Position numbers and translations under genes: made by a program. Of a stretch of 64,000 nt of DNA, positions 1 through 58,882 are shown piece by piece. This DNA is from an uncultured Gammaproteobacteria bacterium (lineage in GTDB: Bacteria > Patescibacteriota > Microgenomatia > Levybacterales > UBA12049). The DNA is taken from NCBI GenBank assembly GCA_964512695.1, contig CAZEJU010000002.1:76233-140232 (forward strand), written 5' to 3'. Under the pieces are notes generated by a model, which saw only the letters and a list, made by a program, of their open reading frames with translations, made no database searches and was not told where the DNA came from. The first letter of the stretch is position 1, and each line of letters begins with the position of its first letter.

Positions 1-953
1 CACCAGATCCTGAAACGCAGAAAAATAAACCCCCTCTTATGGAAGATCTCTATAAGACACTTATGGGTATGGAAAATCCTGTAGCTAAAAATCTCGGCTA
101 TAGACTGGAAAAGTTTATTAAGGGTTCTGCTTCAGGAATTTTTAATCAACATTCAAACTTCGATTTAAAAAATCCATTAACTATTTTTTCTATCAGAAAC
201 CTTGAGGAAGAACTACGCCCTATCGCAATGCATATTATTCTTGATTTCGTTTGGACGAAAGTGAAGCGTTCTTTAAAACGGCGATTACTTATTCTTGATG
301 AGGCTTGGTATATGATGAAATATCAGGATTCAGCGAGTTTTGTCTATTCTCTTGCAAAGCGCGCCAGAAAATATTATCTAGGACTTACCACGGCCACACA
401 GGATGTTGAAGATTTCTTGAAAAATGAATATGGAAAAGCTGTATTAACCAACTCTTCTGTCCAAATTCTTCTTAAGCAAGGCACAGCTGAGGTCGATATG
501 GTAGGTGAAACATTTTATCTATCTGAAGGAGAACGGGAACTTCTTCTTGCAGCAGACGTCGGAGAAGGTTTATTCTTCGCGGGGAAAAATCATGTGGCTA
601 TGAAGGTAATCGCTGCGCCCTTCGAGTATCAGCTCATAACCTCAAACCCAGAAGAGCTTTTAAAAAGACAGCAAGAAGCACAAATGCAACAAATTAACTC
701 TCTACAGACCTCTACCGTTAGCACGCCACAGCCGGTAACACCGCGTCCAGCTAGTACGCCAACTGTTCAAGCTACGCAAACTCTTCCTTCTACTCAACAG
801 GCCTCACAGCCACAGGTCGTTCAACCAACACCAGCCCAGCAGCCTGCTCCCTCTAAACCCGCAGCGCAAGCACCTTCCCAACAACCTAATCAACCGACAG
901 GAAACCCTGACAACAAGAACGCATCATCTCCCTATGTATCTCCAATACCATAA
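1..953 (+). CDS. 5'-truncated VirB4/TrbE-like type IV secretion ATPase C-terminal region with a Pro/Gln/Thr-rich low-complexity tail
   Basis: The ORF is open to the window edge. It has a 'LLILDEAWYMM' Walker-B/DEAW motif typical of VirB4/TraC ATPases. The tail (about 660-953) is PQ/T-rich. Confidence 0.5.
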   Translation, partial: PDPETQKNKPPLMEDLYKTLMGMENPVAKNLGYRLEKFIKGSASGIFNQHSNFDLKNPLTIFSIRNLEEELRPIAMHIILDFVWTKVKRSLKRRLLILDEAWYMMKYQDSASFVYSLAKRARKYYLGLTTATQDVEDFLKNEYGKAVLTNSSVQILLKQGTAEVDMVGETFYLSEGERELLLAADVGEGLFFAGKNHVAMKVIAAPFEYQLITSNPEELLKRQQEAQMQQINSLQTSTVSTPQPVTPRPASTPTVQATQTLPSTQQASQPQVVQPTPAQQPAPSKPAAQAPSQQPNQPTGNPDNKNASSPYVSPIP

Positions 954-41521: not shown

Positions 41522-42619
41522 TTGTTGTCTATGAGTACAAAAACAAAGTTCCCAACCATTCTAAATGATGTTGTCGTAAGTGCGAAGAAACGTGGTTATA
41601 TAACCCAAGAAGAAATATTGGGTATTTTTTCGCGGCCAGAAGACCATATAGAAGAGCTTGATTCTCTTTATGACAAGCTCATGAAGTCAAATATTGATGT
41701 TTTTGAGTCTGTTGCTCAAGAACGAGAAGATCAGAAATCAATTGAAGATCTTGAAAAAGAACTAGAAGCGTTAACTGTTTTGACAGAAGGTGTTGTTTCA
41801 GATCCTGTCAGGATGTATTTAAAAGAAATTGGTCGTATCCCATTACTCACGTTTGATCAGGAAATAGAACTTGCAAAGAAAGTAGAGAAAGGTGATAAAC
41901 ACGCAAAACAGAAGTTAATTAATTCAAATCTTCGTCTTGTTGTTTCAATTGCAAAAAAATATATTGGTCGTGGCTTGACATTACTTGATCTCATTCAGGA
42001 AGGTAACCAAGGCTTAATTCGTGCAGTTGAGAAATATGACTGGAGAAGAGGATTTAAGTTTTCAACCTATGCTACCTGGTGGATTCGTCAGTCAGTAACT
42101 CGTGCAATTGCTGATCAAGCAAGAACTATCCGTATCCCAGTTCATATGGTCGAGAATATCAATCGATTTCTCCGTACCTCTCGAAAACTCATGCAAGAAC
42201 TTGGCCGTGAGCCAACACCGGAGGAAGTGGCAAAAGTACTCGGTATAGAACCTGAAAAAGCTCTTGAGATTATTAAAATATCTCAAAACCCCGCCAGTCT
42301 GGAATCCCCTGTCGGAGATGAAGAGGATAGCAAACTTGGAGATTTTATTCACGACTCAGCAGCTCCGACACTTTTTGATACAGCTTCAAAAGAGCTTCTT
42401 AAGGAGCAGGTAGATCAAGTATTACAGACACTCTCAGATAGAGAGCGGAGAGTTCTTGAGGAACGCTTTGGGTTAAAAGACGGCAGACCGAAAACGCTTG
42501 AAGAAGTAGGGCGAATGTTTGCTGTTACTCGTGAGCGTATTCGCCAGATTGAAGCTAAAGCCCTCCGGAAACTGAGACACCCTTCTCGAGGTAACAAGCT
42601 AAGAGATTACTTAGGCTAA
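41522..42619 (+). CDS. rpoD: RNA polymerase primary sigma factor
   Basis: Region 2 '[14 protein letters not shown]' and region 4.2 '[30 protein letters not shown]'. Confidence 0.9.
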
Positions 42620-43951
42620 ACTTTTTGTTTGTAGTAATTGTGAAATAGTTATCCAGAGTTGTTCCACACCATCAGGCGAGGTTTCTCTCGTTTCTAGCTT
42701 TCTTTTATAATGTATCATCTTTGTAAACAATCCTTGGCTTTGACACCATACTATAAATGCTGCTGCTTGTTTGGGATTATCAGGCAGGCGGAGTGCCCGC
42801 CAGTTATGAGCTTCTTTTAATAGTTCAGTATTTCTAATAGGTTGTTTAGCTTCAGATAATTGCCAAAGTTTCTCATGTGTGTGTTTGCTTGGCATCATCC
42901 CATGATTTCGTAAGAAGTGAAGGTTATCGTACTCTTGTCTGCCAACTGGATGAGAGAAAAGAAGAATAGCTCCACCTCTTTGTGAAGGAGTAGCAAGTGC
43001 CTTAAACGCTTGTTCGCTTGGTTTCGTTACCTCAAGCGCGATGATGTTTTGTTTATATACTTGCTCGTAATTATCTACAGTTGTCCGATCATGGTTTGAT
43101 ATAGCAATTTTTATATACGGTAGATTTTTTATCTCATTTAAAAAATGTGTCGTATATGGAGCTTCCTTCGAAATTATATGAAACATGAAGGTATCTGAAG
43201 CACTGTGAAGTTCTTTTACTAATGCACTTATATGAGTTGTTCCTACAGCAGCTCCAGAGACTGGAATACATACATGGATAGTTTCTTTTTGTTGCAGTTG
43301 CACTTGACGTAGCCGTTTCTTAAATTCTGATTCCGTTAGTTTTTCTGTTAGAAGTGGACTAATAGGATACGCAATAACTTTAATAGGTACAAGGGGATAG
43401 TTCATGCTTTTAGCATAGGCAAGTAGATTTTCTTTTGTATATTCACTTGGAACGAAAATCGTATCCGCTTCTTCTACATACCATATTGTTTGTGGGCTAT
43501 CATCTGTTACTTGGACTACGAGAATAACATTCATACCTGTCTCTTCTTTAAGCTTTTGTTTGAGTTGGCCTAACTGGTGCGCTAGTGCAGTGTGTGTTGC
43601 TATGAGAAGAAGCGTTTTGGGAACTGTTAATCGTTCGCCCAGAATGGTGATTAGTTGCTGGTAAAGAAGTTTTACATGGGATCGTAAATATATTCTACTA
43701 ACACCCGTAAATACGTGTTCAAGTGGTCCGTTTTGTAACCATTCCATTATTGATCGGGTGAGTGGATGAATACTGACAAAACGGTAAAGATTGCTTATTG
43801 ATGGATCTTGCGCGCCGAGTAGCACATGTGGAACTGTATCAGGTAAGCCATGGTAGAGGGCATCTGTAACTCGCAGATGACCAAGCCCTGTAGGAGAAGT
43901 AGCAAATACAATCATTAGCTCTTTATTCTCAAGCGTAGGATAGGAGTCCAT
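42611..43951 (-). CDS. GT-B glycosyltransferase, MGDG-synthase/UgtP/MurG-like (GT28)
   Basis: N-terminal '[20 protein letters not shown]' resembles the MGDG_synth motif. This is a tentative call. Confidence 0.4.
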
Positions 43952-44114
43952 GTTTTTAGTCTAAAGAAGAATATACGGGGAAATCAAGAAGGAATGAATT
44001 AACAGGAGTAAGAATTTGTTACGTGTAAAGACTCATCGAAAAACTGACTATATCGCTGTGAAGGGGATTTCGTAAACGGAGCTTAAGTATGTCGAATTTT
44101 TTCATGGCATTATT

Positions 44115-44552
44115 CTATATCCAATTTGATTCAGAAAAAATTATGTTTTTTTTGTAGCTTTTTATCGCATCTTTTACATAAGGGAGCATTTTATTAGGGA
44201 GATTATTAATGGGAAACCACTGCATATCATCACATTTATCAGGTTCTGTGATATGCGGCTCTCCTTTCCATGTATCTGCAAGAAGGAAAAAGTCTATATA
44301 TTCGACATCGGACATTCTATGCATCACATGGACAACACGTACATTTTTCTTTTTAATAGTTATCCCGGCTTCTTCTCTCGCTTCCCGTATCATAGCTTGC
44401 GTTACCGTTTCATTTCCATCTAAGTGTCCAGCAATGAGACTGTAGTATCCATCTTTCCATCCGGTATTATATCGACGGATGAAGAGAACATTTTCCTCTT
44501 TAATAAGTAGTAAGTATACTGCAACTCGTAGTGTATGACGAGGCTCGCCCAT
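44115..44552 (-). CDS. Nudix hydrolase
   Basis: Nudix box 'GHLDGNETVTQAMIREAREEAGI'. Confidence 0.75.
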   Translation of the reverse strand: MGEPRHTLRVAVYLLLIKEENVLFIRRYNTGWKDGYYSLIAGHLDGNETVTQAMIREAREEAGITIKKKNVRVVHVMHRMSDVEYIDFFLLADTWKGEPHITEPDKCDDMQWFPINNLPNKMLPYVKDAIKSYKKNIIFSESNWI

Positions 44553-44680
44553 AATTTTTGTTATTATATCAGGTTAGTATCTGTGTCTTGAGCTGTAACA
44601 ACCTACATGCTAAAATACGGAGACAAAATATTCCCCTGTAGTCCGCCAGCTGGCGGACAGGAAGCTGTATAGGAGAGAAT

Positions 44681-44934
44681 ATGTGGACTGTATACGTCTT
44701 ATACAATCAGGCAAATCAAAAGATATATATTGGCGTAAGCGCTAATATCGAACAAAGATTAAAGGAGCATAATGTAAAAATAGCAAATCATTATACGATA
44801 CGGCTAAATTTTAAGGGATTTGGGTGTTAATATATAAAGAAGAAATTAATAATAAAAAAGACGCTTTGGTACGAGAAAAGCAACTTAAAAGTTTTAGAGG
44901 TAGAGAATTTATTAAAAAATACATTCCCCTGTAG
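44681..44934 (+). pseudogene. GIY-YIG (UPF0213) nuclease gene interrupted by a +1/-1 frameshift near 44825-44832, ending inside the tRNA
   Basis: Frame A reads 'MWTVYVLYNQANQKIYIGVSANIEQRLKEHN...'. Frame B reads '...IYKEEINNKKDALVREKQLKSFRGREFIKKYIPL*'. Together they reconstitute a typical about 85-aa GIY-YIG protein. Confidence 0.5.
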
Positions 44935-44996
44935 CTCAACGGTAGAGCAGGAAGCTGTTAACTTCAAGGTTCGTGGTTCGAATCCACGCGGGGGAG
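44925..44996 (+). tRNA. tRNA-Asn (anticodon GTT)
   Basis: Hand-folded cloverleaf. Acceptor TCCCCTG/CGGGGGA, D-arm GCTC-AACGGTA-GAGC, anticodon loop CTGTTAA, T-arm CGTGG-TTCGAAT-CCACG. The 5' end resembles E. coli tRNA-Asn. Confidence 0.75.
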
Positions 44997-46565
44997 CAAG
45001 TTCGTTCTTAATATAACTGCCTGTTGGTCAATTAACTCCTGGACAAGCGGAGAATAGACCGTATTAGCAATCTTTTTGTCGTGTACCTCCAGCTTCTCAA
45101 AGAAAAACCGGAGATAACTTTTTTTCAGAAAATCAGGTGCTTCTTTGTACGCTTTCGGAATATCACGGGTCAGTGCGAGTACTTCTTCCAATAAGTCGAA
45201 ATCAAATTTCCTGCTACTTTCAAGTTTTGCTAGTTCCTTATCTACATTCTTAATTTTTTCCTCAACCTCATCACGCAGTCGGCGATTAGCTTCTCTATTG
45301 AACAAAGCATTTGAAAACACGTCCTCCTCAAGAATTCTTCTCCTCCTTATCAGTCCCGCTCTTTCATTCAAATATCCTTTTCGGACTTTTGACTCCTCCT
45401 TATCTCTGTCATTCAGATACCTTCTCACTTTCGCAGTAAGTGCATCAGTGAAACCTTTTGTGAACTTAATACCTCTGAAATGACTGGCAACTTTGTTTTC
45501 AAGGTCGTCTGCCTCCACATAAGGAGCTTTGCAGGGCTTTCTTTTCTGACAATGATAGTAATGTACTGTATCCCTTTTTTTCGAATGAGCAGGGTGCGGT
45601 TCGGCGGTATATCTGAGACCGCAGTCAGCACAGAAAATAATGCCTCTTAACAGATAGTCATACTTTCTTTCTCTTATGGCGAATCCTCTGTGTTTGGCCA
45701 GTATCACCTGACACAAGTCAAAAAGCGGTTTGGATATCAAGGGTTCATGATTACCCATTCGTTCTCTGTTGTTTGTCTCCTGTTTCATCAGACCGTAATA
45801 GAAAGGATTAGTAAGAATCTGCTGAATAGTGCTGTGAGCTAAGGGTTTTCCGTTGACTGTCGTCAGTCCTTTGGTATACATGAACAGCCCGAGCCTTTTT
45901 ACTGAGTACTTGCCTGTAGCGAATCTTTTGAATACTTCTTTCATGAGTGGTCCGTGAATCGGGTCAACTTCAATGGGTAAGGGTTTTCTCGGAAGGGAAT
46001 CTATGTATTGCTGTCTCTCTGGCGTGCGTTTCTTACCCGCGATTCTACCTTCCTTGTCGATATTCAGATATCCGTAAGTTACACCAGTCGGATACCAGCC
46101 GTTATTCCATCTGGTATCTAAGCCTCGCTTTGTCTTTCTGCCTAAGTCCCGTGAGTAGAATTCATTAATTCCCGCCATGAAAGTGTCCAACAATCTTCCT
46201 TCCGGGCTTTCATCCAACATCGGCTGAACAACGGAAATTAGCCTTGTTCCTGCTTTTTTGAGCTGTTCCTTGATAAGAAAATGGTCTGTGGCATTTCTGG
46301 CGAAACGGTCAGTGTTGTAGACAATTATGGCTCCTACTTTCCTGGTGTCAATTTGTTCAAGCATTTTCAGAAACTCGGGTCGATTGGAGACTGTGGCACT
46401 TTGTCCTTCGTCTTTGAATGTTTCCAATATTTCATACTCTAATTCGTGAGCTTTCTTGGTACATATATCTGTTTGAGCTTCAATGGAGTACCCTTCCTTG
46501 GCTTGTTCCTCCGTACTTACTCTGCAGTAGATGAAACATGTTTTCTGGTCGTTATTCATATTCAT
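44964..46565 (-). mobile_element. Large serine recombinase (integrase) whose last about 11 codons are encoded by the tRNA-Asn 3' half
   Basis: N-terminal resolvase domain 'CFIYCRVSTEEQAKEGYSIEAQ', a recombinase domain, a Cys-rich zinc ribbon 'CADCGLRY...HYYHCQKRKPC', and a coiled-coil. Codon usage is distinct. Confidence 0.75.
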
Positions 46566-46734
46566 AGTCCTATAGCATTATTATAAGCAATTCTGAAAAG
46601 CATTGAAACAAAGTTAAGATAATATACCGTTATTAGAAGATATGGGAAGGTGACTATATAGTTACTGTTAATAGAGTTACTATATAAGTTACATACCGTT
46701 ATTCCTTTGTTGAATATTTCTGTATTACTCATAA

Positions 46735-50014: not shown

Positions 50015-50111
50015 ACATGCGTTATTTTCAGCCTCAAAGCTGTCTGAATCTTAACACATTGTGACTGTGAGTCGCAAGACTCCCAGTCACATTCTTAGTA
50101 CATTTTGGAGT

Positions 50112-50366
50112 ATGGGACGAACTAATAAGTCATTTCCCGTAGACCAAAAAGACAAGGCGGTGTTACAGAAAAAGTTCGGTAAGAGACTCGCTGAAATAAG
50201 AACTGAGAAAGGGATCACTCAGGAAGGGTTGTCGTTTGAAACAGGGGTCGACAGGACGTATATTAGCTATATTGAGCGGGGTGAGCGAAATCCATCACTC
50301 TTCATGCTTTGGAGACTTTCAAAAGCTCTTAAGATCAGGATTAACGAGCTGACGGATTTTCAGTAA
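50112..50366 (+). CDS. XRE-family helix-turn-helix regulator, a possible controller protein
   Basis: 'LAEIRTEKGITQEGLSFETGVDRTYISYIERGERNPSL'. Confidence 0.65.
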   Translation: MGRTNKSFPVDQKDKAVLQKKFGKRLAEIRTEKGITQEGLSFETGVDRTYISYIERGERNPSLFMLWRLSKALKIRINELTDFQ

Positions 50367-50448
50367 CATTCTTCCTTAATTTCATCTTTGTCAGAAGTGT
50401 GTCCTTCTTACGGTATAATTGAGACCGGTAAGGAGTGGAGTTACTCGC

Positions 50449-50868
50449 ATGGATGTTCATACAAAAGAACAAAGAAGCTATAACATGTCACGGGTGAAGT
50501 CGAAAAATACTAAGCCTGAATTATTAATGTTTTTGTTACTCGAAGAGGCCGGATATAAGTTTGAAAAACATTATCCGATTACGGGTAAGCCCGATATCGC
50601 ATTTCCCGAACACAAGGTTGCCGTGTTCATTGATGGAGAATTCTGGCATGGTAAGGATTACAAGCAGATAAGAGATTCCATTCCGCCTTTTTGGGTCAAA
50701 AAAATAGGAGAAAATCTTAAACGGGACGGGAGAAATATGAGAAAGCTAAGAAGTGAAGGCTGGCGTATTCTGCACTTTTGGGATAAGAAAGTGGTCAAAT
50801 ATCCTGAGAGGTCACTCCGAAGAATTACGCGGTTTCTTGAGCGTGTAAGAATCTCTGACGGAAAGTAG
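50449..50868 (+). CDS. vsr: Very-short-patch repair endonuclease
   Basis: 'MDVHTKEQRSYNMSRVKSKNTKPE' and 'VAVFIDGEFWHG'. Confidence 0.8.
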   Translation: MDVHTKEQRSYNMSRVKSKNTKPELLMFLLLEEAGYKFEKHYPITGKPDIAFPEHKVAVFIDGEFWHGKDYKQIRDSIPPFWVKKIGENLKRDGRNMRKLRSEGWRILHFWDKKVVKYPERSLRRITRFLERVRISDGK

Positions 50869-51955
50869 GAACAAGTTTCTTTGTCGTTTTCAATTCATTC
50901 ATCGATTTAAGAAGAGCATCGGCGGCTCTTTTTGCAAGCAAAGGCGGAACTGCGTTTCCTATCTGTTCGGCAATCTGGCCAAAATTGCCTATGAATTTGA
51001 AATCATCAGGAAAAGTCTGAAGTCGTGCAGCTTCACGAAGAGATATTGCTCTGTTTTGTTCCGGGTGTCCGAATCTTCCCTTTGAAATCATCGCACAACC
51101 TCCTGTCATTGTAGGTGATGGTTGGTCCCACCTCATTCTTCCGTATACGTCTTTGTGTCCCTTTGTATTTCGGTGACATTCGAGGACTAACTCATCAGGC
51201 CATGAAGTTCTGTCTCCACCATCGTGAGGGGTCAACATGAGTCTTTTCAGATTGATTTCGGCGAGACTGGCGGAAGCATGCATGGCGTCATCCGGGTGTT
51301 TCTCGCCAGCCTGAATTTTGGGCAAGTCGTTGATGGCTTCTCTTACCGTATTCCAAGCTGGTAAATCATCAGAAGTTGCCGGGTCAATGTTGGTCTTAGA
51401 AGGAAAAGATAGCCTGATATCCGAATTATTAGTGCCCATAAGGACGAGCCTCTTTCTTCTCTGAGGAACGCCGTAATCGGCCGTATTCACAACGTCGTAG
51501 ACTGTCTGATACCCCAGCTCATGAAGTTTCTGCAGTATTTGAAGAAAGAGAGGTTTCCCGATTCCCGTCGCAAGCCCCGGAACGTTTTCAAGAACGAAAG
51601 CAAGCGGCTTAATTTCTTCAACAATTCTCAGGAATTCATATATCAGTTTGTTTCTCGGGTCTGTTAATCTTTGTGAGTTTCTCCTGGCACTCGAAAACCC
51701 CTGACAGGGAGGACAAGCGATGAGAACCACCTGTTTTCCGTTTTTGAATCCTCCCGCTTTCAACAGCTCCTTACCTGACAGATAAGAGATGTCTGACGGG
51801 AATACGGCACAGTCGGGAAAGTTTGCCTTGAATGATTCGGATGCGTTTTTGTCGATATCAACGGCAACTTTGATATCAAAACCAGCTTGCTGAAAGCCTA
51901 ACGCCGAACCTCCGCAACCGGAAAAAAGGTCAATTACACCCAAGTTTCCCTTCAT
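50825..51955 (-). CDS. dcm: DNA (cytosine-5)-methyltransferase
   Basis: Motif I 'DLFSGCGGSALGF', motif IV 'PPCQGFS', motif VI 'ENV'. It is convergent with vsr and overlaps it by 44 nt. Confidence 0.85.
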   Translation of the reverse strand: MKGNLGVIDLFSGCGGSALGFQQAGFDIKVAVDIDKNASESFKANFPDCAVFPSDISYLSGKELLKAGGFKNGKQVVLIACPPCQGFSSARRNSQRLTDPRNKLIYEFLRIVEEIKPLAFVLENVPGLATGIGKPLFLQILQKLHELGYQTVYDVVNTADYGVPQRRKRLVLMGTNNSDIRLSFPSKTNIDPATSDDLPAWNTVREAINDLPKIQAGEKHPDDAMHASASLAEINLKRLMLTPHDGGDRTSWPDELVLECHRNTKGHKDVYGRMRWDQPSPTMTGGCAMISKGRFGHPEQNRAISLREAARLQTFPDDFKFIGNFGQIAEQIGNAVPPLLAKRAADALLKSMNELKTTKKLVPTFRQRFLHAQETA

Positions 51956-52112
51956 GATAATAATATATCATTTTTCGCCCGGTCGCTGTCGGGGTTTTTT
52001 GAAGAGTGTATATACTCATTCATTCCGTGTTATATATTTTATAAGTGTTGACTACAGAATGAAAATATAGTATCCTTTGTTCCAGCAAATCGGTCTAAAT
52101 ACTGAAATTAAT

Positions 52113-52340
52113 ATGAAAACAGGCGAAACAAAAGGTGCGGCTTTCAAAAGGCTCGCTTCCAACAGAACGAATAACGCAATCAGGAACATCAAACTTCTGG
52201 GTAATTTGTCCAACAAACATAATTACTCCTACTCCGAAGAGGACTTCAAACGAATTTTCAACAGCGTCGAACATGAACTTAAACTGGCAAAATCGAAATT
52301 TCTTATCTCGCTGAGTAAGAGTAAGAAATTCAAACTCTGA
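52113..52340 (+). CDS. Small basic hypothetical protein, first gene of the candidate operon
   Basis: ATG at 52113. The track's 52077 start is a TTG. Confidence 0.35.
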   Translation: MKTGETKGAAFKRLASNRTNNAIRNIKLLGNLSNKHNYSYSEEDFKRIFNSVEHELKLAKSKFLISLSKSKKFKL

Positions 52341-52363: not shown

Positions 52364-53014
52364 ATGAAAATGAAAAAAGATATAACATCACTGAAGCTCA
52401 CAAGACCACAGAAGATTCTCGTAACACTGTATCAACTTTCCGACGGTACTAATAAACAGGTCAGGTTCGAAGATATAGCAGTAGGCGTTTATAAGAACTT
52501 CACTTCCGATTTTCAGCTAAGAGGTTATCCTCAATACCCTGATACGGGTGATATTGTACATAAACCGCTGTATAGCGAATTGAAAAAAGGCGGATATGTA
52601 TTATCCGGCAATAAGTACTTTTCCCTTACTCCGAAAGGAATTGCGTACGCCAAAAGACTGCTCCGCGTTTCAGAGAAAGAAACCGAACCGGGTAAAACCG
52701 CTTCAGTGAAACTTACGGCAGACCAGCAGAAAGAGCTTGACAGATTGAAATCTTCAAAGGCTGTTGAGTTGTTTCTTAACGGCAAGAAAGAGGATATTCT
52801 TGATATAGACTTCTATTCCTATCTGGAAGTTACAGTGAGGACGGGTAAGAATGACTTTCTGGGAAGACTTCGCACGGTAGAAGACGCCATTAATGCTACA
52901 AAAAACAGAAGTGACACGCTGTACAAAAAGCTGAGAGAATGTCACGAGTATCTTCTTGAAAGATTCAGAGGAAACATTGATTTCGTAAGGAACAGCAAAG
53001 GAGGTAAGAGGTAA
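52364..53014 (+). CDS. Putative winged-helix DNA-binding protein, 216 aa
   Basis: 'RPQKILVTLYQLSDGTNKQVRFEDIAV...GGYVLSGNKYFSLTPKGIAYAKRL' is PadR/MarR-like. Its stop overlaps the next start. Confidence 0.4.
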   Translation: MKMKKDITSLKLTRPQKILVTLYQLSDGTNKQVRFEDIAVGVYKNFTSDFQLRGYPQYPDTGDIVHKPLYSELKKGGYVLSGNKYFSLTPKGIAYAKRLLRVSEKETEPGKTASVKLTADQQKELDRLKSSKAVELFLNGKKEDILDIDFYSYLEVTVRTGKNDFLGRLRTVEDAINATKNRSDTLYKKLRECHEYLLERFRGNIDFVRNSKGGKR

Positions 53015-54858
53015 TGGCAACGACAATACAAATGAAAATTAAGGAAGAGCAGAATGTCTATCATGACAACATTCTTGATATTTGGGGTAATGACTTCAAT
53101 TTCAGTCATGAAAAGGGTTTGGCAGAATGGCTTAAGAATTCAGTAGACGCATACCGCAGAGTCGGGGCTGCCGACAAAGACCAATACATTATCTTCCGTT
53201 TCACTGACGGTACTCAGACGACACCTCCAGTTATTGAGTGCATTGATTTCGTGGGAATGGAATTGGTTGATATTGAGAAGGCTTTCAAATGGTGGGGTGA
53301 CCCTGATGCGGCAAAAAGAGGTCAAAAAATTAAGGTATTCGGCGGTCATGGAAACGGCGGAAAGTTCTATATGCGTCAGATGTTTCTGCAATCACATTTT
53401 GTGACATACAGGCAGGGAAAAATTAACGTCTTCGGATTCAATGAAAACAGGAAGTATGGTTTTGCAGAAGGATATAAGGACAAAAAAGTTACACTTGATG
53501 AAGCCCTGAAGATAGCCGGGATAGAAAGGTCAACTATTCCCAATGCGGTTTTGCGTCAACTTGAACACGGAGAGACTGGGTTTACTGTTGTCAAAGGAAT
53601 CAGACCGAAAAAAGTCGTCGGTAGGAGTCTTCCCGTATTCAGAATATGTGACAAGCTGAAGTATCATCCTCAGGCAAGAAGTCCTCTTAAGTTCAGTAAT
53701 GTATCCGTTATCCATAACGGCAAGATAATTGCGAACGGCCTGAGAATGGAAGATATCGAACCGCTTGAAGGTTTTGAAGGACCGTTCTTTTTTGAGATTC
53801 CCGACGAAATAGATTCCATAGCGGACGGAGAAACAGGAAAGAAAGTGAATATGTATGACAAGAGGTATGGGAAAGGCAGTCTGGTATTAAAAACTTCATC
53901 TCTTCCTTTCGGTCGCGGAGGTAGAAAACCTGAGCTGAATTGTATTGATATTGTCGGTGAAATCGGTGTTATTGCTTCATATAACATGCAACAGATAGGC
54001 TTTCTCCGATACTTCCCTCAGGCTCAATATATATATGGAGAGTGCTCATGTCCCATTCTTGAAGACCCGGAATATGATTGTGTTCAGAATGACAGAGAAA
54101 GACTTGTCGATAATGAAAAAACAGCAGCTCTCCTTCAATGGATTGCAAGAAGAATAGATGAAGTGGCAGGCAAGATTGCCGATAATGAAGCGAAGGCGGA
54201 AGAAGCTGAGAATATAAGAGCTACAGACGAGTTTAATCAGATTCTCAATAAGTGGAAGAATCAGTTTATGTCGAAGCTGTTTGCTGAGGTCTTGGGCGGT
54301 ACGGGAAAAGGAGATTCTACCGGTGGTCAGGGTGACGAAGGCTCAGGTGGCGGCACGAAGAAAGAATCAAAAGACAAGGACGGATTAGGCTCAGGAGCCG
54401 GTAAGGGTGGCGGAGAAGGAGATGAGAAGAAGAAAGGTTCAAGAGCACCCCTTGTACTTTTGTCCGGACAGGAAGACCCGGAATTTCCCGGTATGCCTGT
54501 AACTTTTTCTGACAGACATTTCGCTGTGGAACAAAGACAGCAGGATGTAGACAGAGGAATATATTGGATTAATCTTGAAAAGCCGATGGCGAAGAAGATA
54601 ATCGATAAGTACGGAGTTGACTCTCCGAGGTGGAGAAACTATTTATTCCAGAGATATGTTGACATATTTACAAAGGAAACATTGTATCGTCTGGCAAAGA
54701 AGGAAGGAGGCTCTCTTACGCCCGAACAGGCTGACTACGAAATAATGCGTGTGTCATCTCTTGTATATGATAAGGCCACAATCGACCTTGAAGATTTTCT
54801 TCTGAGCGAGAGATACAATTCAGGCAAGAATAATGAAAATGAATCCGAACAATCATGA
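53014..54858 (+). CDS. GHKL/MORC-like ATPase with a Gly/Lys/Asp-rich linker
   Basis: Bergerat N-box 'AEWLKNSVDA' (ExxxNxxDA) and G2-like 'FGGHGNGGKFY'. Low-complexity stretch 'GGTGKGDSTGGQGDEGSGGGTKKESKDKDGLGSGAGKGGGEGD'. Confidence 0.55.
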   Translation: MATTIQMKIKEEQNVYHDNILDIWGNDFNFSHEKGLAEWLKNSVDAYRRVGAADKDQYIIFRFTDGTQTTPPVIECIDFVGMELVDIEKAFKWWGDPDAAKRGQKIKVFGGHGNGGKFYMRQMFLQSHFVTYRQGKINVFGFNENRKYGFAEGYKDKKVTLDEALKIAGIERSTIPNAVLRQLEHGETGFTVVKGIRPKKVVGRSLPVFRICDKLKYHPQARSPLKFSNVSVIHNGKIIANGLRMEDIEPLEGFEGPFFFEIPDEIDSIADGETGKKVNMYDKRYGKGSLVLKTSSLPFGRGGRKPELNCIDIVGEIGVIASYNMQQIGFLRYFPQAQYIYGECSCPILEDPEYDCVQNDRERLVDNEKTAALLQWIARRIDEVAGKIADNEAKAEEAENIRATDEFNQILNKWKNQFMSKLFAEVLGGTGKGDSTGGQGDEGSGGGTKKESKDKDGLGSGAGKGGGEGDEKKKGSRAPLVLLSGQEDPEFPGMPVTFSDRHFAVEQRQQDVDRGIYWINLEKPMAKKIIDKYGVDSPRWRNYLFQRYVDIFTKETLYRLAKKEGGSLTPEQADYEIMRVSSLVYDKATIDLEDFLLSERYNSGKNNENESEQS

Positions 54859-56266
54859 CAATTCCATCCTGCCCGCACAGTTATCACTGCATAACACAAC
54901 TTCGAATACCGGAGCTGTTAATTATTTGTCAGAGAATGAAATATCCCTCCCTCCTTCTCTGAGTAATGACGACTCCATTGAAGTATTGGGTCTACCAATA
55001 AGACTGGAAAACGCTCTCAAAAATTCAGGAAATATCACGACAGTCGGACAGTTAGTTAATACCGCTGACGAAAAGTTGCTGAAGTTGAGGAATCTCGGTC
55101 ATAAGTCCGTCAACTATCTTATGCAGGTGAAATTGAAGATAGATGAAAAGTTCAGTACTCTCCAAAACAGAACACCCACAGAAATAACTGAGCAAAAACA
55201 AGAGGAAAAAATTATTCCTGTCAATCAACTCCTCAATTTGTTGCTCGATAGATGCGGTAGTGAAAGAGTCAAAGAAATAGTCAAAAGACGATACGGCCTT
55301 ATGGACGGAGAAAGACAAACTCTCGAAGAAATCGGTGAGCATTACGGAGTAACTAGAGAAAGAATCAGACAGATTCAAGTTAAGGCATTGAAGAGCATGC
55401 GACATCCGATTACTACAGCCAGGAAACCGATTACGGATATTATGGAAACCATTCTGTTTCGGAATGGCGGAATAATTTCTGCTGAAGAAGCGGACACCAT
55501 AATTCCGGAAGCTTTCAGTGATACGGGTAACGACGGGAGTTCTGTGCTTGATTTACTTTGTGAATTGGGCTGGATTCAGAGCTGCAGAATCGGAGATATA
55601 GCAATATATTCACCGAAATTTGACGGTGTTTCTCTGTGCAAGTTGTCGGAAAAAATCACATTTCTGATTAAGAAACAGGATTTAGGGATTGACATTCCTT
55701 CAATATTCAAAGGTGTCAGTATGTTCAGAAGAATCAGAGACCAACGTTTCAATCCTCAGGACTTCGTTCTCAGATATTGCAGAATCGACCCTCGGATTGA
55801 AGAAATCGGACTTACATCAGCACAACCCGAAGTTTTTTTCAGGTACTATACAGTCGGTCATTTCGCTAAGAAGGGTTGGGTGGTTCTTATGACCAGAGTG
55901 TTGGAACAGGAACAAATGCCGTTACATTTCACTGAAATTGCAGATAAGGTAAATGACCTTCTGGGTAATTCTGAGAGGAGACTGGATGTAAGAAGAGCAC
56001 ATTCGATATTGATTGACGATGAAGCATTCGCTCACAGTGGTATTAACGGGACGTACGGTCTTACATCGTGGGGTTTGAGAAAAGATTCAACTGTCGAACT
56101 GGCAGAAGAGTGTCTGAGAAAAGCGGGGTTCCCGTTACATTGGAAGCAAATATTCAATTATGTGAGCAGGTATAAGAATACAAAACCGGGAAACATTACC
56201 AGTATTCTTGAAAATCATCGCAGATTCAAAAGAGTTGAATCAGGAATTTATTGGCTTAATGACTAG
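54833..56266 (+). CDS. Multi-HTH protein made of RNA-polymerase-subunit-like modules: alpha-CTD-like, sigma70 region-4-like, and two HARE-HTH-like domains
   Basis: 'IRLENALKNSGNITTVGQLVNTADEKLLKLRNLGHKSVNYL' resembles the RpoA CTD. '[41 protein letters not shown]' resembles sigma r4.2. 'PLHFTEIADKV...GTYGLTSW' and 'PLHWKQIFNYV...GIYWL' resemble HARE-HTH. It overlaps the upstream gene by 26 nt. Confidence 0.6.
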   Translation: MKMNPNNHDNSILPAQLSLHNTTSNTGAVNYLSENEISLPPSLSNDDSIEVLGLPIRLENALKNSGNITTVGQLVNTADEKLLKLRNLGHKSVNYLMQVKLKIDEKFSTLQNRTPTEITEQKQEEKIIPVNQLLNLLLDRCGSERVKEIVKRRYGLMDGERQTLEEIGEHYGVTRERIRQIQVKALKSMRHPITTARKPITDIMETILFRNGGIISAEEADTIIPEAFSDTGNDGSSVLDLLCELGWIQSCRIGDIAIYSPKFDGVSLCKLSEKITFLIKKQDLGIDIPSIFKGVSMFRRIRDQRFNPQDFVLRYCRIDPRIEEIGLTSAQPEVFFRYYTVGHFAKKGWVVLMTRVLEQEQMPLHFTEIADKVNDLLGNSERRLDVRRAHSILIDDEAFAHSGINGTYGLTSWGLRKDSTVELAEECLRKAGFPLHWKQIFNYVSRYKNTKPGNITSILENHRRFKRVESGIYWLND

Positions 56267-56274
56267 TGATATAT

Positions 56275-58680
56275 ATGGACATACAGAAAATTAAAATTAA
56301 GAGCGATTATAAATTAGCGGATATCGTTCATGATATTGAAAAAGGAATCTTGAGGATTCCTCAATTCCAGAGAGAGTTTGTGTGGGATAAGCCCCGGGTC
56401 ATCAAACTTCTGGAAAGTATCTATCTTGAATACCCGATTGGGTCTTTTTTCTTCTGGGACGCTCCGCGAAAGTATTACGACTTCTATCGTGATATCGCTG
56501 AGTTGGGTCTTCCCAAGCCCGATAGGTACGAAAAAATTGTTTTCATTCTCGACGGTCAACAGAGGCTTACTTCCCTCTATGTTACGGTCAAAGGGTTGAC
56601 GCTCTACAGTAGGGATTACAAAAAGATTTGTTTTGACCTGGATGAAAAAATATTTGTTGACAGAATACCTGACAATCAGAGATTCGTTTCTGTTTCAGAT
56701 TTACTATCGAATGACCGATTTGATGTCTATGAACGACTTACGGTTGAGCGAAAGAAATCATTCAACGAATGCTATCAGCGATTCAATAATTATCCTTTCT
56801 CAGCGATTGATGTCCGGGACAAGGAACTTGATGAGGTCTGTGACATCTTTGAGCGTATCAACCAGGGAGGACAGAGACTCAATTTGTTTGACCTCATTTC
56901 AGCAAGCACTTGGACTCCCGAGTTTGACTTAAGGTTTGCGGTCAAGAAAGAGAATGACAATCTGAAGACAAAGGGCTTCGGAGATATTGATAATGAAGTC
57001 TTTCTTCAAACACTTTCCCTTATCGCCAAGGGTTCATGTACGAGACCTGTCCAATTACAATTAAGGGCCGAAGACGTTAATAAGTTCTGGCAGGAGACAG
57101 TCAATTCAATGTCTCTGGCAATTGATTATCTGAAGAACAACTTAGGGGTGGTCAATTCGGTGTTCATTCCGTACAGAAGTATGATAGCTGTTGTTGCTTA
57201 CCTGTTCTCTGTCAACAAAGGCAGGAGTCTGAATCACGAGCAGTCAGAGCTATTGTCCCAATGGTTCTGGCAGACTACGTTTTCAGAGCGGTACGGAGCT
57301 TCAATTCTGACGTTAATGACCGAAGACAAAAAATTAATGGACAAAATAGCTTCAGGAACTGATATCAGCGTTAAGTATCCGTTTTCGTTGGATATTGATT
57401 CACTTATTCAGGTGAGAATGTATCGAAAGTCGGCTGTTAAAAACGGCATTCTGTGCCTGTTGGCTAAGAGAAACCCCAGACATTTCAAAAACAATGTCCC
57501 TCTTCTGCTCAAAGACGGATATTATTCAGATTTCAACAATTCAGAGAAACATCATATTTTTCCTAAGGCGATTGTTCAGAAGAAGTTCCCTATGGTCATG
57601 GTACATTCACTCCCAAACTTCTGTTTCATTCCTGCGGAACTTAATAAGGAGATATCAGACAAACAGCCGAGCAAGTATTTTGAAGAGTATTTGAGTATAA
57701 ACCCCGACTTTGAAGATACTCTCAGAACCCACCTGATTAAGTACGATGATTCAATCAGACAGAACGATTTCATGTCTTTTCTGGCTTCAAGAGCGGCGAT
57801 GATTCTTGAGGAAATAACGAGAGCTACCGGTTCAAAAATCAGTCGGGTAGTAGCAGATAACGTTAACAAGGCGATAGATGATACTGAGAAGAAACTGCGT
57901 GACTTCATAGATAAGCAATTATCCTTAAATAATACTGATTATTGGAAAACATCAGTACCGAGCGATGTTGTCGGAATAATGCGTCAGAGAGTCAATCAAT
58001 ATCTGTCCAAAGACCCTTCAAAGATAATCAGCGATTTCAGTTCAAGGGACTTACTCGACTTCTGTGACATTATGGATTATTCAAAAATGGTCATCTCAAA
58101 CTGGAACATATTTTCAACTTTTTTCAGGTCGAAGATTGAAACTGAGAAAAGATTTTTGAATCTGAAAGAGTTCAGAAACGCAGTCAAACATACAAGAGGA
58201 GAGATTGTTCCTTTCATTCAGAAAGAAGGAGAAGCGGCTCTGGAATGGCTATCAATCATTCTTGGTGAAGTCAGAAAAAAGGGAGAGGAAAGAGCTTCAG
58301 TTACAGAGACCGACGAACAAACCATTAACAGGGTTGAATCGGAGTTTGTCAAACATATGGTCAAAGGAATACCTCAATGGATTGAAAACGATTACCCTGA
58401 AGGAACCAGTTCAATAGTGAAGTTGGTGGGCGGTACGGGTTCTGACCATTACATAAAAACAAACAGCAGAACAGCTATCTGGTATTATTTCGCTAAACAA
58501 TGGGTGTTCATGGAGTTGAAGGATGCGACTGTTGAAGAAGCTAAATTGTTGAGGGAAAGGATTTCAAAGCCCGAGTCAATATTAGAAAAGCAAAACGGTG
58601 CCGTCAGATTTCATCTGATGAATGATAATGATTTGAAGGTGGTAACGGACATTATAAGAATCAGAGCTAATAACGGTTGA
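56275..58680 (+). CDS. GmrSD-family-like nuclease: DUF262 (ParB-like) plus DUF1524 (His-Me finger) plus a C-terminal extension with a HEPN-like RNxxxH motif
   Basis: 'IPQFQREFVWD' and 'LDGQQRLTSLYV' are DUF262 motifs. 'SEKHHIFPKAIV' is DUF1524. 'EFRNAVKHTRGE' is an Rx4H motif. ATG at 56275; the track start 56266 is a GTG. Confidence 0.65.
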   Translation: MDIQKIKIKSDYKLADIVHDIEKGILRIPQFQREFVWDKPRVIKLLESIYLEYPIGSFFFWDAPRKYYDFYRDIAELGLPKPDRYEKIVFILDGQQRLTSLYVTVKGLTLYSRDYKKICFDLDEKIFVDRIPDNQRFVSVSDLLSNDRFDVYERLTVERKKSFNECYQRFNNYPFSAIDVRDKELDEVCDIFERINQGGQRLNLFDLISASTWTPEFDLRFAVKKENDNLKTKGFGDIDNEVFLQTLSLIAKGSCTRPVQLQLRAEDVNKFWQETVNSMSLAIDYLKNNLGVVNSVFIPYRSMIAVVAYLFSVNKGRSLNHEQSELLSQWFWQTTFSERYGASILTLMTEDKKLMDKIASGTDISVKYPFSLDIDSLIQVRMYRKSAVKNGILCLLAKRNPRHFKNNVPLLLKDGYYSDFNNSEKHHIFPKAIVQKKFPMVMVHSLPNFCFIPAELNKEISDKQPSKYFEEYLSINPDFEDTLRTHLIKYDDSIRQNDFMSFLASRAAMILEEITRATGSKISRVVADNVNKAIDDTEKKLRDFIDKQLSLNNTDYWKTSVPSDVVGIMRQRVNQYLSKDPSKIISDFSSRDLLDFCDIMDYSKMVISNWNIFSTFFRSKIETEKRFLNLKEFRNAVKHTRGEIVPFIQKEGEAALEWLSIILGEVRKKGEERASVTETDEQTINRVESEFVKHMVKGIPQWIENDYPEGTSSIVKLVGGTGSDHYIKTNSRTAIWYYFAKQWVFMELKDATVEEAKLLRERISKPESILEKQNGAVRFHLMNDNDLKVVTDIIRIRANNG

Positions 58681-58882
58681 AATTACATAAGGTCAAGAGT
58701 GGAGTGTTTTTTAACTGATAGAAGGATATCTCCTGCAAAAATAACAATTAAGACGAGAACAATAAATATACTCAATTTCTTCATATTTACACTGCTATTA
58801 TATTCCTTTTTTATTCGTGTTTACTCGAGAATTCATTGTGTGAAATTGAAAATATTGGTACATTATTATAAGTAATATACTT

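Follow-up and report, generated by a model that had tools for sequence, protein, structure and literature searches.

Aravind and Iyer are reported to have described in 2012 (Cell Cycle 11:119) bacterial proteins that join features of the alpha and sigma subunits of RNA polymerase (RNAP) with HARE-HTH domains. These proteins are arranged as (alpha CTD)n, sigma region 4 and then HARE-HTH, as is C477, the protein examined here, and the role predicted for them, binding to DNA and telling modified DNA apart, is the same as that proposed for C477. As far as checked, that work describes the architecture and not the operon; C477 has four winged helices and is tied to a specific MORC-like ATPase. The operon as such appears to be undescribed; the domain architecture was reportedly noted in 2012.

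A comparable section is found in PglW of type 2 BREX (NF033442, PDLC02512). The central region of PglW has been interpreted as a nucleic-acid-binding section in which an alpha-CTD-like helical domain precedes winged helices (2026 analysis, PMC12839542). The N-terminal half of C477 matches PglW (E 1e-12 and 4e-11, NCBIfam and PADLOC models), residues 42-220 aligning with model positions about 800-980 (795-978). Both proteins come from methylation-based defence loci, although C477 lacks the NERD nuclease, the pseudokinase and kinase and the inactive C-terminal STAND domain of PglW. Because the match reaches 41 bits against a full-length cutoff of 990, with a single section matched, C477 was rejected as a BREX PglW and represents a free-standing counterpart of just its DNA-binding section. 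MzaA of the candidate anti-phage system MZA (NF041931, PDLC02203) resembles C477 as a sigma-70-like protein without full sigma function in a defence-type gene set. The similarity is confined to region 4 (E 2e-15, 56.7 bits against a cutoff of 800) and no neighbour of C477 matched a PADLOC Mza model; with the full-length match and the MzaB-E neighbours both missing, C477 was not assigned to MzaA. The MZA set includes a MutL-like GHKL ATPase.

The ATPase encoded next to C477, B614, shares the GHKL and S5 fold of the paraMORC/MORC ATPases of restriction-modification systems (PMC2292703). ParaMORC families are linked to cytosine methylases, Vsr and nucleases (Iyer, Abhiman and Aravind 2008, PMC2292703), and the word "sigma" is absent from the main text of that paper. 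B614 shows the same linkage to a cytosine methylase and Vsr, with HNH nucleases or a second GHKL gene in some loci; unlike paraMORC systems, its loci contain no superfamily II helicase, and B614 was not assigned to any one of paraMORC families 1-5. Response_reg_2/HEF_HK GHKL pairs also consist, like A216-B614, of a small protein and a paraMORC-related GHKL protein beside Dcm and Vsr, but they are not reported to include anything sigma- or alpha-like (PMC8011034). Neither A216 nor B614 matched an ATPase or Response_reg_2/HEF_HK family in Pfam at E <= 0.1.

In the delta subunit (RpoE) of RNAP from Gram-positive bacteria, a single N-terminal HARE-HTH is followed by a long acidic tail, and this HARE-HTH is an RNAP-binding module, not a DNA reader. 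C477 carries a C-terminal pair of HARE-HTH, has no polyanionic tail and ends in ...SGIYWLND, and it was rejected as a delta subunit. The HARE-HTH of ASXL1 bound 6mA-containing DNA selectively in vitro (PMC6591016).

Domain anatomy of C477

From its N-terminus, C477 consists of a disordered segment, an alpha-CTD-like helix-hairpin-helix (HhH) domain, a disordered linker, sigma-70 region 4 and four winged helices, the final pair being HARE-HTH (Table 1). The AlphaFold model is of high confidence (pLDDT 84.7), with disorder predicted for residues 1-30 and 113-124. A sequence-only reading of this DNA had recognized an alpha-CTD-like module and a sigma-70 region 4 resembling that of the host RpoD, and both were confirmed by significant Pfam matches to RNA_pol_A_CTD (residues 46-94, E 6e-12, 45.5 bits against a cutoff of 23.8) and Sigma70_r4 (residues 143-191, E 2e-13, 50 bits against 24.1). 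In the PDB, the former part matches solved alpha CTDs such as that of B. subtilis (1z3e_B, E 4e-7), and primary sigma factors are the best matches of the latter (E 2e-23). Over 63 residues, region 4 shares 49% identity with host RpoD (41522-42619); with S. aureus SigA it shares 50%, and it thus shows no host-specific mimicry. Structural matches of C477 include 3n97, a solved complex with the alpha CTD beside sigma region 4 on UP/-35 DNA, as well as sigma-4/beta-flap-tip chimeras.

Table 1. Features of the region around C477. Positions refer to the window, the whole analysed stretch of 64,000 nucleotides; aa, amino acids.
Feature	Position	Strand	Details
Large serine recombinase	44964..46565	-	Pfam Resolvase, Recombinase, Zn_ribbon_recom
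Xre/HTH_3 small regulator, upstream of Vsr	50061..50366	+	Pfam HTH_3, E 2e-16
Vsr, very-short-patch repair endonuclease	50419..50868	+	Pfam Vsr, E 3e-25
Dcm, C5 cytosine DNA methyltransferase	50825..51955	-	Pfam DNA_methylase, E 2e-71
Promoter-like site TTGACT-17-TATCCT	52048..52076	+	Holds conserved dyad
s87, first operon ORF, small, conserved	52113..52340	+	About 75 aa
A216, partner of B614 ATPase	52364..53014	+	216 aa
B614, MORC-like GHKL+S5 ATPase	53014..54858	+	614 aa
C477, protein under study	54833..56266	+	477 aa, ATG start, genuine ORF
C477 alpha-CTD-like HhH domain	54965..55153	+	aa 45-107; Pfam, PDB matches
C477 sigma-70 region 4 (4.1 + 4.2)	55220..55408	+	aa 130-192; Pfam, RpoD, PDB
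C477 two middle winged-helix domains	55421..55846	+	aa 197-262, 268-338; AlphaFold model
C477 tandem HARE-HTH winged helices	55868..56257	+	aa 346-412, 420-475
D804, variable downstream cargo, candidate DUF262/GmrSD-type nuclease	56266..58680	+	Pfam GmrSD_N, E 1e-31

The C-terminal half had been read as two HARE-HTH modules. The tandem pair is supported, but two additional winged helices between region 4 and the pair had been missed, which makes the C-terminal half an array of four winged helices; structural matches liken the tandem array to the SelB C-terminus. The HARE-HTH profile (PF05066) matches C477 partially (residues 355-380, E 1.9e-5, 25.4 bits against a cutoff of 25.9) and reaches 28.9 to 66 bits in its relatives. 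Both modules have the winged helix-turn-helix fold, which matches delta within an RNAP complex.

Neither Sigma70_r2 nor Sigma70_r3 was found in C477 with Pfam at E <= 0.1, and full-length sigma models fell far under their cutoffs (e.g. RpoD_Cterm, 62 against 354). Upstream of region 4 the AlphaFold model contains the HhH domain and the disordered linker. Lacking regions 2 and 3, C477 is therefore not a sigma factor of the sigma-70 family. Neither of the results that would have contradicted the sequence-only reading, insignificant profile matches or the presence of sigma regions 2 and 3, was obtained. It was also rejected as an alpha subunit (RpoA): the DNA-binding determinant of the CTD is present, while the N-terminal dimerisation/assembly domain was not found (rpoA models, 32-36 bits against cutoffs of 228-302). 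C477 is indeed assembled from copies of modules that bind DNA and that elsewhere belong to RNA polymerase subunits.

Relatives of C477 contain one to four tandem alpha-CTD copies, and the module is joined in relatives to gyrase-A C-terminal blades and an integrase SAM-like domain; no enzymatic domain was present in the ten longest relatives examined. Some relatives directly adjoin BREX-type modification systems, on the 5' side of BREX-like operons, and short relatives in Patescibacteria stand among housekeeping genes.

Gene linkage and operon structure

C477 belongs to a conserved mobile gene set with a small ORF, A216, B614, Dcm and Vsr, near rpoD and a serine recombinase gene. The recombinase is the probable mobility gene of the island, and the identical recombinase type adjoins rpoD in two other loci (L003 and L005). 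Across 22 complete related loci, each with at least 3.5 kb on either side, Dcm was present in 21, Vsr in 19 and a C477-like gene in 17; since the remaining five lack the latter, the core is able to work without C477. A216 adjoins B614 in 66 of the 70 loci with enough upstream sequence. The proposed nuclease/ATPase operon context held, with a GHKL ATPase upstream and a DUF262/GmrSD-type nuclease candidate downstream, as did the adjacency of Dcm, which Pfam extends to Vsr.

In B614 a GHKL domain precedes an S5-fold transducer domain, and the protein further contains a Gly-rich disordered linker (residues 430-475) and a conserved C-terminal domain without assigned function. In its N box E38 and N42 are invariant, with D45 and A46 conserved at 90% or more; among the further Bergerat-fold ATP-binding motifs (G1 and G2 boxes), D78, G81, M82 and G110-K117 (GGHGNGGK) are invariant. 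The best structural matches are MORC3, SMCHD1 and MORC2. Its partner A216 had no PDB or Pfam match, and its sequence suggests an N-terminal winged helix.

The start of C477 overlaps the 3' end of B614 by 26 nt and D804 begins at the C477 stop codon, which suggests co-translation of subunits. The window-type C477 gene is third or fourth in its operon. In some clades the C477-like gene precedes A216-B614 or diverges from it, an arrangement typical of regulators. The gene 3' of C477 is variable, being a GmrSD-like nuclease candidate here and different genes elsewhere; D804 was present only in the window and one other locus (L086) among those compared. D804 has the GmrSD N-terminal DUF262 domain with QR35, DGQQR96 and FxxxN195 motifs, and matches the PADLOC models PDC-M55C (9e-46) and HEC-05 (1e-42). 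[quoted passage not shown] In three loci (L102, L109, L165), C477 is replaced after B614 by a short gene encoding a sigma-4.2-like HTH, a Zn ribbon and an HNH nuclease. Furthermore, HNH, NERD-like and DUF262 genes occur among the neighbours of B614 loci. No nuclease was found in the invariant core of the gene set, so the system might not be a restriction system.

The dyad in the promoter-like site (halves ACTACA, 52051-52056, and TATAGT, 52066-52071) is kept in the same place across window-type loci, amid flanking sequence that is not conserved. This promoter leads directly into s87, not C477; s87 is kept ahead of A216 in many loci and is a candidate controller protein. Since a conserved dyad operator precedes the small first ORF, a separate regulator is already available to the operon. 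Promoter-like sites of the region were no commoner than in shuffled sequence. Restriction-modification controller (C) proteins are small Xre-type HTH dimers that act on a dyad (C-box) within the promoter of their own gene. C477 was itself rejected as such a protein, given its 477 residues, six different domains and the presence of a separate HTH_3 gene.

Conservation and evolution of C477

Residue conservation was counted across 48 family members. In region 4, R153, T174, R175, E176, R177, R179 and Q180 are invariant (48/48), and position R145 is R in 40 and K in 8 sequences. Together these are, by alignment, the equivalents of E. coli sigma-70 R554, R562, T583, R584, E585, R586, R588 and Q589. 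In the alpha-CTD-like domain R57, N60, G89, K91 and S92 are conserved in 34 to 47 of the 48, corresponding by alignment to E. coli alpha R265, N268, G296, K298 and S299. The family-conserved residues are thus the equivalents of DNA-contact residues in sigma-70 and alpha. The region-4 recognition helix does not vary and is the same as in primary sigma factors, which fits a universal target; instead of -35-like DNA, this target could just as well be a protein, for instance RNAP. The basic patch behind the helix is mostly K or R across the family, and the region 4.1 helix is far less conserved than the recognition helix.

C477 evolves faster than its neighbours, its enzymatic partners included (73% against 94-95%, 62% against 80%, 42% against 69% and 26% against 52%). 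Among the globular parts, the two middle winged helices are conserved least (per-domain identity 0.39 and 0.28); these and the linkers, not the RNAP-like modules, change most quickly.

Proposed role of C477

An unlikely though credible alternative is that C477 regulates transcription of the island, repressing or activating defence genes at their UP-like and -35-like elements and perhaps releasing them once foreign DNA titrates its HARE-HTH, in analogy to BrxR-type regulators at defence operons. Every module of C477 is a classical transcription-factor DNA-binding domain, its -35-contact residues are invariant, and the TTGACT -35 hexamer of the operon promoter is a good one, preceded by AT-rich sequence. 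Regulation would also suit the upstream or divergent gene in several clades, the relatives 5' of BREX-like operons and the short Patescibacteria relatives, whose housekeeping surroundings are compatible with a general transcription role of the ancestral form. However, the window-type gene is only third or fourth and starts inside the ATPase gene, a small first ORF behind the dyad operator and an HTH_3 gene are already present, and C477 has no obvious dimeric symmetry to suit that dyad. Its position is alternatively filled by the sigma-4-like HTH-HNH nuclease fusion, which is no regulator, its homologous module in PglW sits inside an enzyme, and promoter-like sites do not exceed their frequency in shuffled sequence. 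Occupation of promoter elements also figures in an improbable proposal, that the gene set is no restriction system and instead silences DNA under the guidance of methylation, as a bacterial equivalent of MORC-based silencing in eukaryotes. The alpha-CTD-like and sigma-4 modules would occupy UP/-35 elements while the HARE-HTH pair checks the Dcm mark; the MORC-like ATPase clamp would be loaded on unmarked (foreign) DNA, blocking RNA polymerase, with the exchangeable nucleases as backup only. The nuclease-free invariant core, the invariance of -35-contact residues across hosts of different phyla and the MORC3, SMCHD1 and MORC2 matches of B614 fit such silencing.

The sequence-only reading had proposed an RNAP mimic, a decoy or guard that phage anti-sigma or alpha-modifying factors (such as ADP-ribosyltransferases) would bind or modify, thereby licensing the ATPase and nuclease; this we consider improbable. 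The module types, three in number, do have counterparts in three RNAP subunits, R57 is equivalent to alpha R265, the residue ADP-ribosylated by T4 enzymes, the patch past the recognition helix is mostly basic, and C477 evolves fast, like arms-race sensors. The related PglW module is, in addition, attached to protein kinases (PMC12839542). The proposal nevertheless gained no support: region 4 is no nearer to host RpoD than to S. aureus SigA, alpha-CTD copies vary from one to four and are combined with ordinary DNA-binding domains, sister operons fuse a sigma-4-like HTH to HNH nucleases, and evolution is quickest outside the RNAP-like modules. The positions conserved best are DNA-contact residues, and binding to DNA accounts for them at least equally well. 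There is similarly little likelihood that C477 docks on RNAP, with region 4 on the beta flap and HARE-HTH placed as in delta, so that the MORC-like ATPase and the nuclease would reach transcription complexes, or so that sigma would be displaced and transcription shut down during infection. Docking would suit the presence of both 4.1 and 4.2 in a region 4 nearest to primary sigma factors, the beta-flap-tip chimeras among structural matches, the fold match to delta within RNAP and the seemingly housekeeping Patescibacteria relatives; against it, region 4.1 is much less conserved than the DNA-recognition helix, and C477 has no sigma region 2 for core binding.

Our preferred, if tentative, explanation, to which we give a little less than an even chance, is that C477 serves to recognize DNA, as reader or targeting subunit, within a mobile defence or restriction-like system of MORC type that is linked to Dcm; that it binds DNA, tells modification states apart and contacts the ATPase is inferred, as is any defence phenotype. 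Counting for a DNA reader are the conserved DNA-contact residues, the 3n97 complex among the structural matches, the extra DNA-binding modules of relatives, the PglW match, BREX adjacency and the sigma-4-HNH gene in the C477 position. The linkage to Dcm, Vsr and A216-B614, the overlapping genes, the variable downstream gene, the fast evolution of C477, the 6mA selectivity of the ASXL1 HARE-HTH and the separate regulator in the operon also speak for it. Counting against it are the absence of C477 from five of the 22 loci, the regulator-like gene position in some clades, the core without a nuclease, the invariant region-4 helix, which might target RNAP, and the RNAP-binding role of the delta HARE-HTH.

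In the proposed mechanism, Dcm would place 5-methylcytosine on host DNA and Vsr would mend the resulting mismatches. In Dcm-Vsr pairs, Vsr repairs T:G mismatches arising by 5mC deamination. C477 would bind DNA by six independent modules, with the alpha-CTD-like HhH in the minor groove, as alpha at UP elements, the region-4 HTH in the major groove, as sigma at the -35 element, and then the four winged helices, among which the tandem HARE-HTH pair would read the modification state. On DNA judged foreign, it would recruit or license the A216-B614 MORC-like ATPase, which may clamp or loop DNA upon ATP binding. The complex would then direct a nuclease, encoded by a separate, exchangeable gene (here GmrSD-like D804) or, in some relatives, fused straight to the sigma-4-like HTH (HNH). 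A coupling of the nuclease, through HARE-HTH, to the modification state set by Dcm, which the sequence-only reading had also raised, fits the data better than a decoy does. C477 is most likely a fast-evolving DNA-reading subunit, not an RNA polymerase decoy.

Domain architecture and residue conservation of C477

C477, the product of a real open reading frame of 477 residues, had been described in the sequence-only reading as an assembly of alpha-CTD-like, sigma-70 region 4 and HARE-HTH modules, and this make-up was confirmed by Pfam searches, an AlphaFold model, and alignments with RpoD and with alpha CTDs. In Pfam, RNA_pol_A_CTD (aa 46-94, E 6e-12) and Sigma70_r4 (aa 143-191, E 2e-13) matched well over their curated cutoffs, and the HARE-HTH match was partial (aa 355-380, 25.4 bits with the cutoff at 25.9). 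The AlphaFold model, for which the alignment input was 48 family members, had a mean pLDDT of 84.7 and contained four winged helices, of which the first two, in the middle of the protein, had been missed in the earlier layout. Region 4 shares 49% identity over 63 residues with the host RpoD (encoded at 41522-42619), primary sigma factors were the best matches of the family profile (E 2e-23), and the alpha-CTD part matched solved alpha CTDs (E 4e-7). An ordinary sigma or ECF factor was rejected because regions 2 and 3 are absent; furthermore, no alpha N-terminal domain was found in Pfam and full-length family model searches. C477 thus cannot be classed as either a sigma factor or an alpha subunit.

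Residue conservation was counted over the 48 family members, with positions given in E. coli numbering, backed by the RpoD and alpha-CTD alignments. Equivalents of sigma-70 R562, T583, R584, E585, R586, R588, and Q589 were invariant, that of R554 was R or K in all sequences, and those of alpha R265, N268, G296, K298, and S299 were each retained in 34-47 sequences, and the region 4.1 helix was far more variable. The positions kept are the contact residues for -35 and UP-element DNA. One of the structural matches, 3n97, is a solved complex in which an alpha CTD and a sigma region 4 lie next to each other on DNA of this kind. Conservation inside C477 was highest in region 4 and the HARE-HTH pair and lowest in the linkers and the first two winged helices. 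The protein as a whole was less conserved than its neighbours at every locus compared (73 vs 94-95%, 62 vs 80%, 42 vs 69%, and 26 vs 52% identity).

Operon and island organization

C477 is encoded in a tightly packed operon on the + strand, together with s87 (a small ORF), A216 (a 216-aa partner protein), B614 (a MORC-like GHKL ATPase), and D804 (a GmrSD-type DUF262 protein). B614 was identified by predicted fold only, and sequence-profile searches of the PDB returned nothing for either B614 or A216. D804 retains intact QR, DGQQR, and FxxxN motifs and carries a C-terminal HEPN-like domain with an R-x4-H motif (RNAVKH at residue 637); DUF1524 was not found in it by Pfam. Its PADLOC matches are the candidates PDC-M55C and HEC-05.

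The operon promoter contains a dyad, ACTACA-N9-T(G/A)TAGT, between its -35 and -10 hexamers; the window copy reads ACTACA-N9-TATAGT and spans 52051-52071. In the window and in L001, L003, L086-L094, L097, and L101 (related loci on other contigs), the dyad holds a constant position while the intergenic DNA around it has diverged; in L095 and L096 it is altered to the TACA...TGTA type. From this pattern the dyad looks like an operator, or C-box. The s87 product had no family match; its gene keeps the first place, ahead of the one for the 216-aa protein, at many related loci, and the product is a candidate for the controller acting at this dyad. Promoter-like sites in the region did not exceed shuffled expectation.

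In the window (41522-46565), the large serine recombinase of the island lies near the 3' end of rpoD with one glycosyltransferase-like gene in between, and in L003 (370-3075) and L005 (3-1928) it directly adjoins rpoD, which suggests a preferred insertion site beside this gene. When direct repeats were sought as island ends, the sole candidate was a 16-nt pair that differs at one position and lies in AT-rich DNA, too weak to be called as attachment sites; it may be what is left of such sites or may have arisen by chance in DNA of this composition.

Positions of features in the window, in C477, and in related loci
Feature	Sequence	Position	Strand	Remark
Large serine recombinase	window	44964-46565		farther upstream of operon, then rpoD
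16-nt repeat, CATTATTATAAGCAAT	window	46576-46591		adjoins recombinase gene start
HTH_3 gene	window	50061-50366		upstream of operon
Vsr	window	50419-50868		upstream of operon
C5 cytosine methylase (Dcm)	window	50825-51955	-	upstream of operon
Terminator-like hairpin and T tract	window	51978-51993	+	between divergent Dcm gene and operon promoter
Operon promoter, TTGACT-17-TATCCT	window	52048-52076		5' of small first ORF
s87, small ORF, 75 aa	window	52113-52340	+	first gene of operon
A216, 216 aa	window	52364-53014	+	
B614, 614 aa	window	53014-54858	+	3' end overlaps C477 start by 26 nt
C477, 477 aa	window	54833-56266	+	
D804, 804 aa	window	56266-58680	+	begins at C477 stop codon
16-nt repeat, ...GTAAT	window	58861-58876		just past 804-aa gene
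N-terminus	C477			disordered (AlphaFold model)
HhH domain	C477	aa 46-107		AlphaFold model
Linker	C477	aa 113-124		disordered (AlphaFold model)
Region-4 helical domain	C477	aa 130-190		AlphaFold model
Four winged helices	C477	aa 197-262, 268-338, 346-412, 420-475		AlphaFold model
Sigma-4.2-like HTH and zinc ribbon proteins	L102, L109, L165, L163	5913-6866, 2508-3389, 11819-12745, 8777-9400		directly 3' of MORC-like ATPase gene
Second GHKL ATPase gene	L119, L120, L125	1030-2946, 2635-4551, 1484-3400		loci without C477-like gene

Related loci

About 90 full-length relatives of C477 (35-73% identity) were found, the majority from metagenome assemblies; those with a source name belong to Patescibacteria lineages. 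The ATPase B614 has many relatives (43-94% identity), and its profile was used to retrieve 80 metagenome loci onto which homologues of the window genes were mapped. The 216-aa gene adjoins the ATPase gene in 66 of the 70 loci with enough upstream sequence. Among the 22 complete loci, defined by at least 3.5 kb on each side, Dcm was present in 21, Vsr in 19, and a C477-like gene in 17. The C477-like gene was positioned right after the ATPase (8 loci), upstream on the same strand (4), upstream and divergent (3), or after Dcm-Vsr (2).

The gene 3' of C477 is not conserved across related loci: a DUF262 protein occurs there in the window and L086 only, in L001 the place is taken by an AAA_15/AAA_21 ATPase, and in L003 by unknown genes. 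In L102, L109, and L165 the ATPase is followed by a protein of roughly 300 aa with an N-terminal sigma-4.2-like HTH, then a Cys-rich zinc ribbon, and a C-terminal HNH nuclease recognized by Pfam in L102 and L109 and by its Cys/His pattern in L165. The corresponding protein of L163 is short and has no HNH domain, and a NERD-like gene comes next. In L119, L120, and L125 a second GHKL ATPase (Pfam HATPase_c_3, 638 aa) is encoded just 5' of the 216-aa/614-aa pair. At L127 (9117-14439), DISARM-like genes for a DrmE_C-domain protein and a DEAD-box helicase come after the Dcm-Vsr pair.

A plasmid collection search found no C477 homologues and one distant B614 match without comparable context; B614 also had six viral-contig matches, and PHROG gave no informative match. 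Because plasmid and phage collections yielded few or no matches, the system is considered chiefly chromosomal-island borne.

The wider module family

Among 1.84 billion representative proteins, the C-terminal module of four winged helices had 46 relatives at E < 1e-30 and 585 at E < 1e-3. Domain make-up was inspected in the ten longest, nine of which combine one to four alpha CTDs with sigma region 4; HARE-HTH was detectable in eight of those nine. In some of the ten, an integrase SAM-like or TPR domain is added at the N-terminus; enzymatic domains were absent from all ten. Gyrase-A C-terminal blades occur in other relatives. One relative, P0093 (L170-L172), is encoded directly 5' of a type-4 BREX-like set (PAPS reductase, DUF4007, BrxC, PglZ) and another, P0261 (L181), directly 5' of a PglX-like methylase and DUF4007; no mention of alpha-CTD/sigma-4/HARE-HTH proteins beside BREX-like sets was found in a 2026 BREX survey.

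Patescibacteria also encode short forms of about 350 aa, consisting of sigma region 4 and HARE-HTH, whose neighbours are housekeeping genes (SecDF, DnaE, TopA/DprA, and BipA; L006-L009, and L166-L169 with P0103). A contig scan with the family alignment, in which the pattern VTRERIRQI is common to housekeeping sigma factors, gave four usable distant Patescibacteria relatives (L006-L009) among the matches listed. This short form may be a general transcription factor specific to the lineage, from which the island-borne form may descend.

Comparison with known systems

Aravind and Iyer reportedly remarked on the three-part alpha-CTD/sigma/HARE-HTH architecture in 2012. In C477, residues 42-220 match the centre of PglW from type 2 BREX, and region 4 has a further match in MzaA, from the candidate MZA system. 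These matches are partial and far under cutoffs, and membership of C477 in either family was rejected; modules related to its own occur in both. The matching part of PglW, described as an alpha-CTD-like domain with winged helices after it, has been read as a nucleic-acid-binding section (PMC12839542). No PADLOC model matched the operon of s87, A216, the MORC-like ATPase, and C477 with Dcm and Vsr, nor was its description found in the literature searched. A role in restriction-modification was predicted in 2008 for GHKL ATPases of the MORC type with a link to cytosine methylases (Iyer et al. 2008, PMC2292703), and no experimental characterisation of these ATPases was found in the literature searched.

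Inferred role of C477

We favour one reading as the best supported, tentatively and at somewhat less than even chances: as a subunit that binds DNA multivalently, C477 would supply the reading or targeting function of a defence or restriction-like system that is of MORC type, linked to Dcm, and served by exchangeable nucleases. Such a role agrees with both the paraMORC themes of Iyer et al. 2008 (PMC2292703) and the modification-reading role proposed for HARE-HTH. The main rival, in which C477 acts as a regulator, appears unlikely: since a small first ORF already stands behind the conserved dyad-bearing promoter and the island has a separate HTH_3 gene, C477 is not needed for that purpose. Less probable still is the suggestion of the sequence-only reading that C477 is a decoy or guard, which found no specific support, as there is no host-specific mimicry, alpha-CTD copy number varies, and modules of this type are joined to ordinary DNA-binding domains.

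With C477 read as a targeting subunit, the window offers a compact, complete, and mobile example of a methylase-MORC system. The candidate targeting subunit is built from modules whose DNA contacts in RNA polymerase are known at the atomic level, and point mutations for testing are therefore obvious. Furthermore, since the alpha/sigma/HARE-HTH module is also found within PglW and next to BREX-like systems, knowledge of its target, with promoter-like DNA, modification state, or RNA polymerase as candidates, would inform several modification-based defence systems. The findings also touch on how bacterial methylase-MORC sets are linked in evolution to MORC silencing in eukaryotes, and the C477 operon provides a clean, testable case of how methylase-MORC systems may locate their targets.
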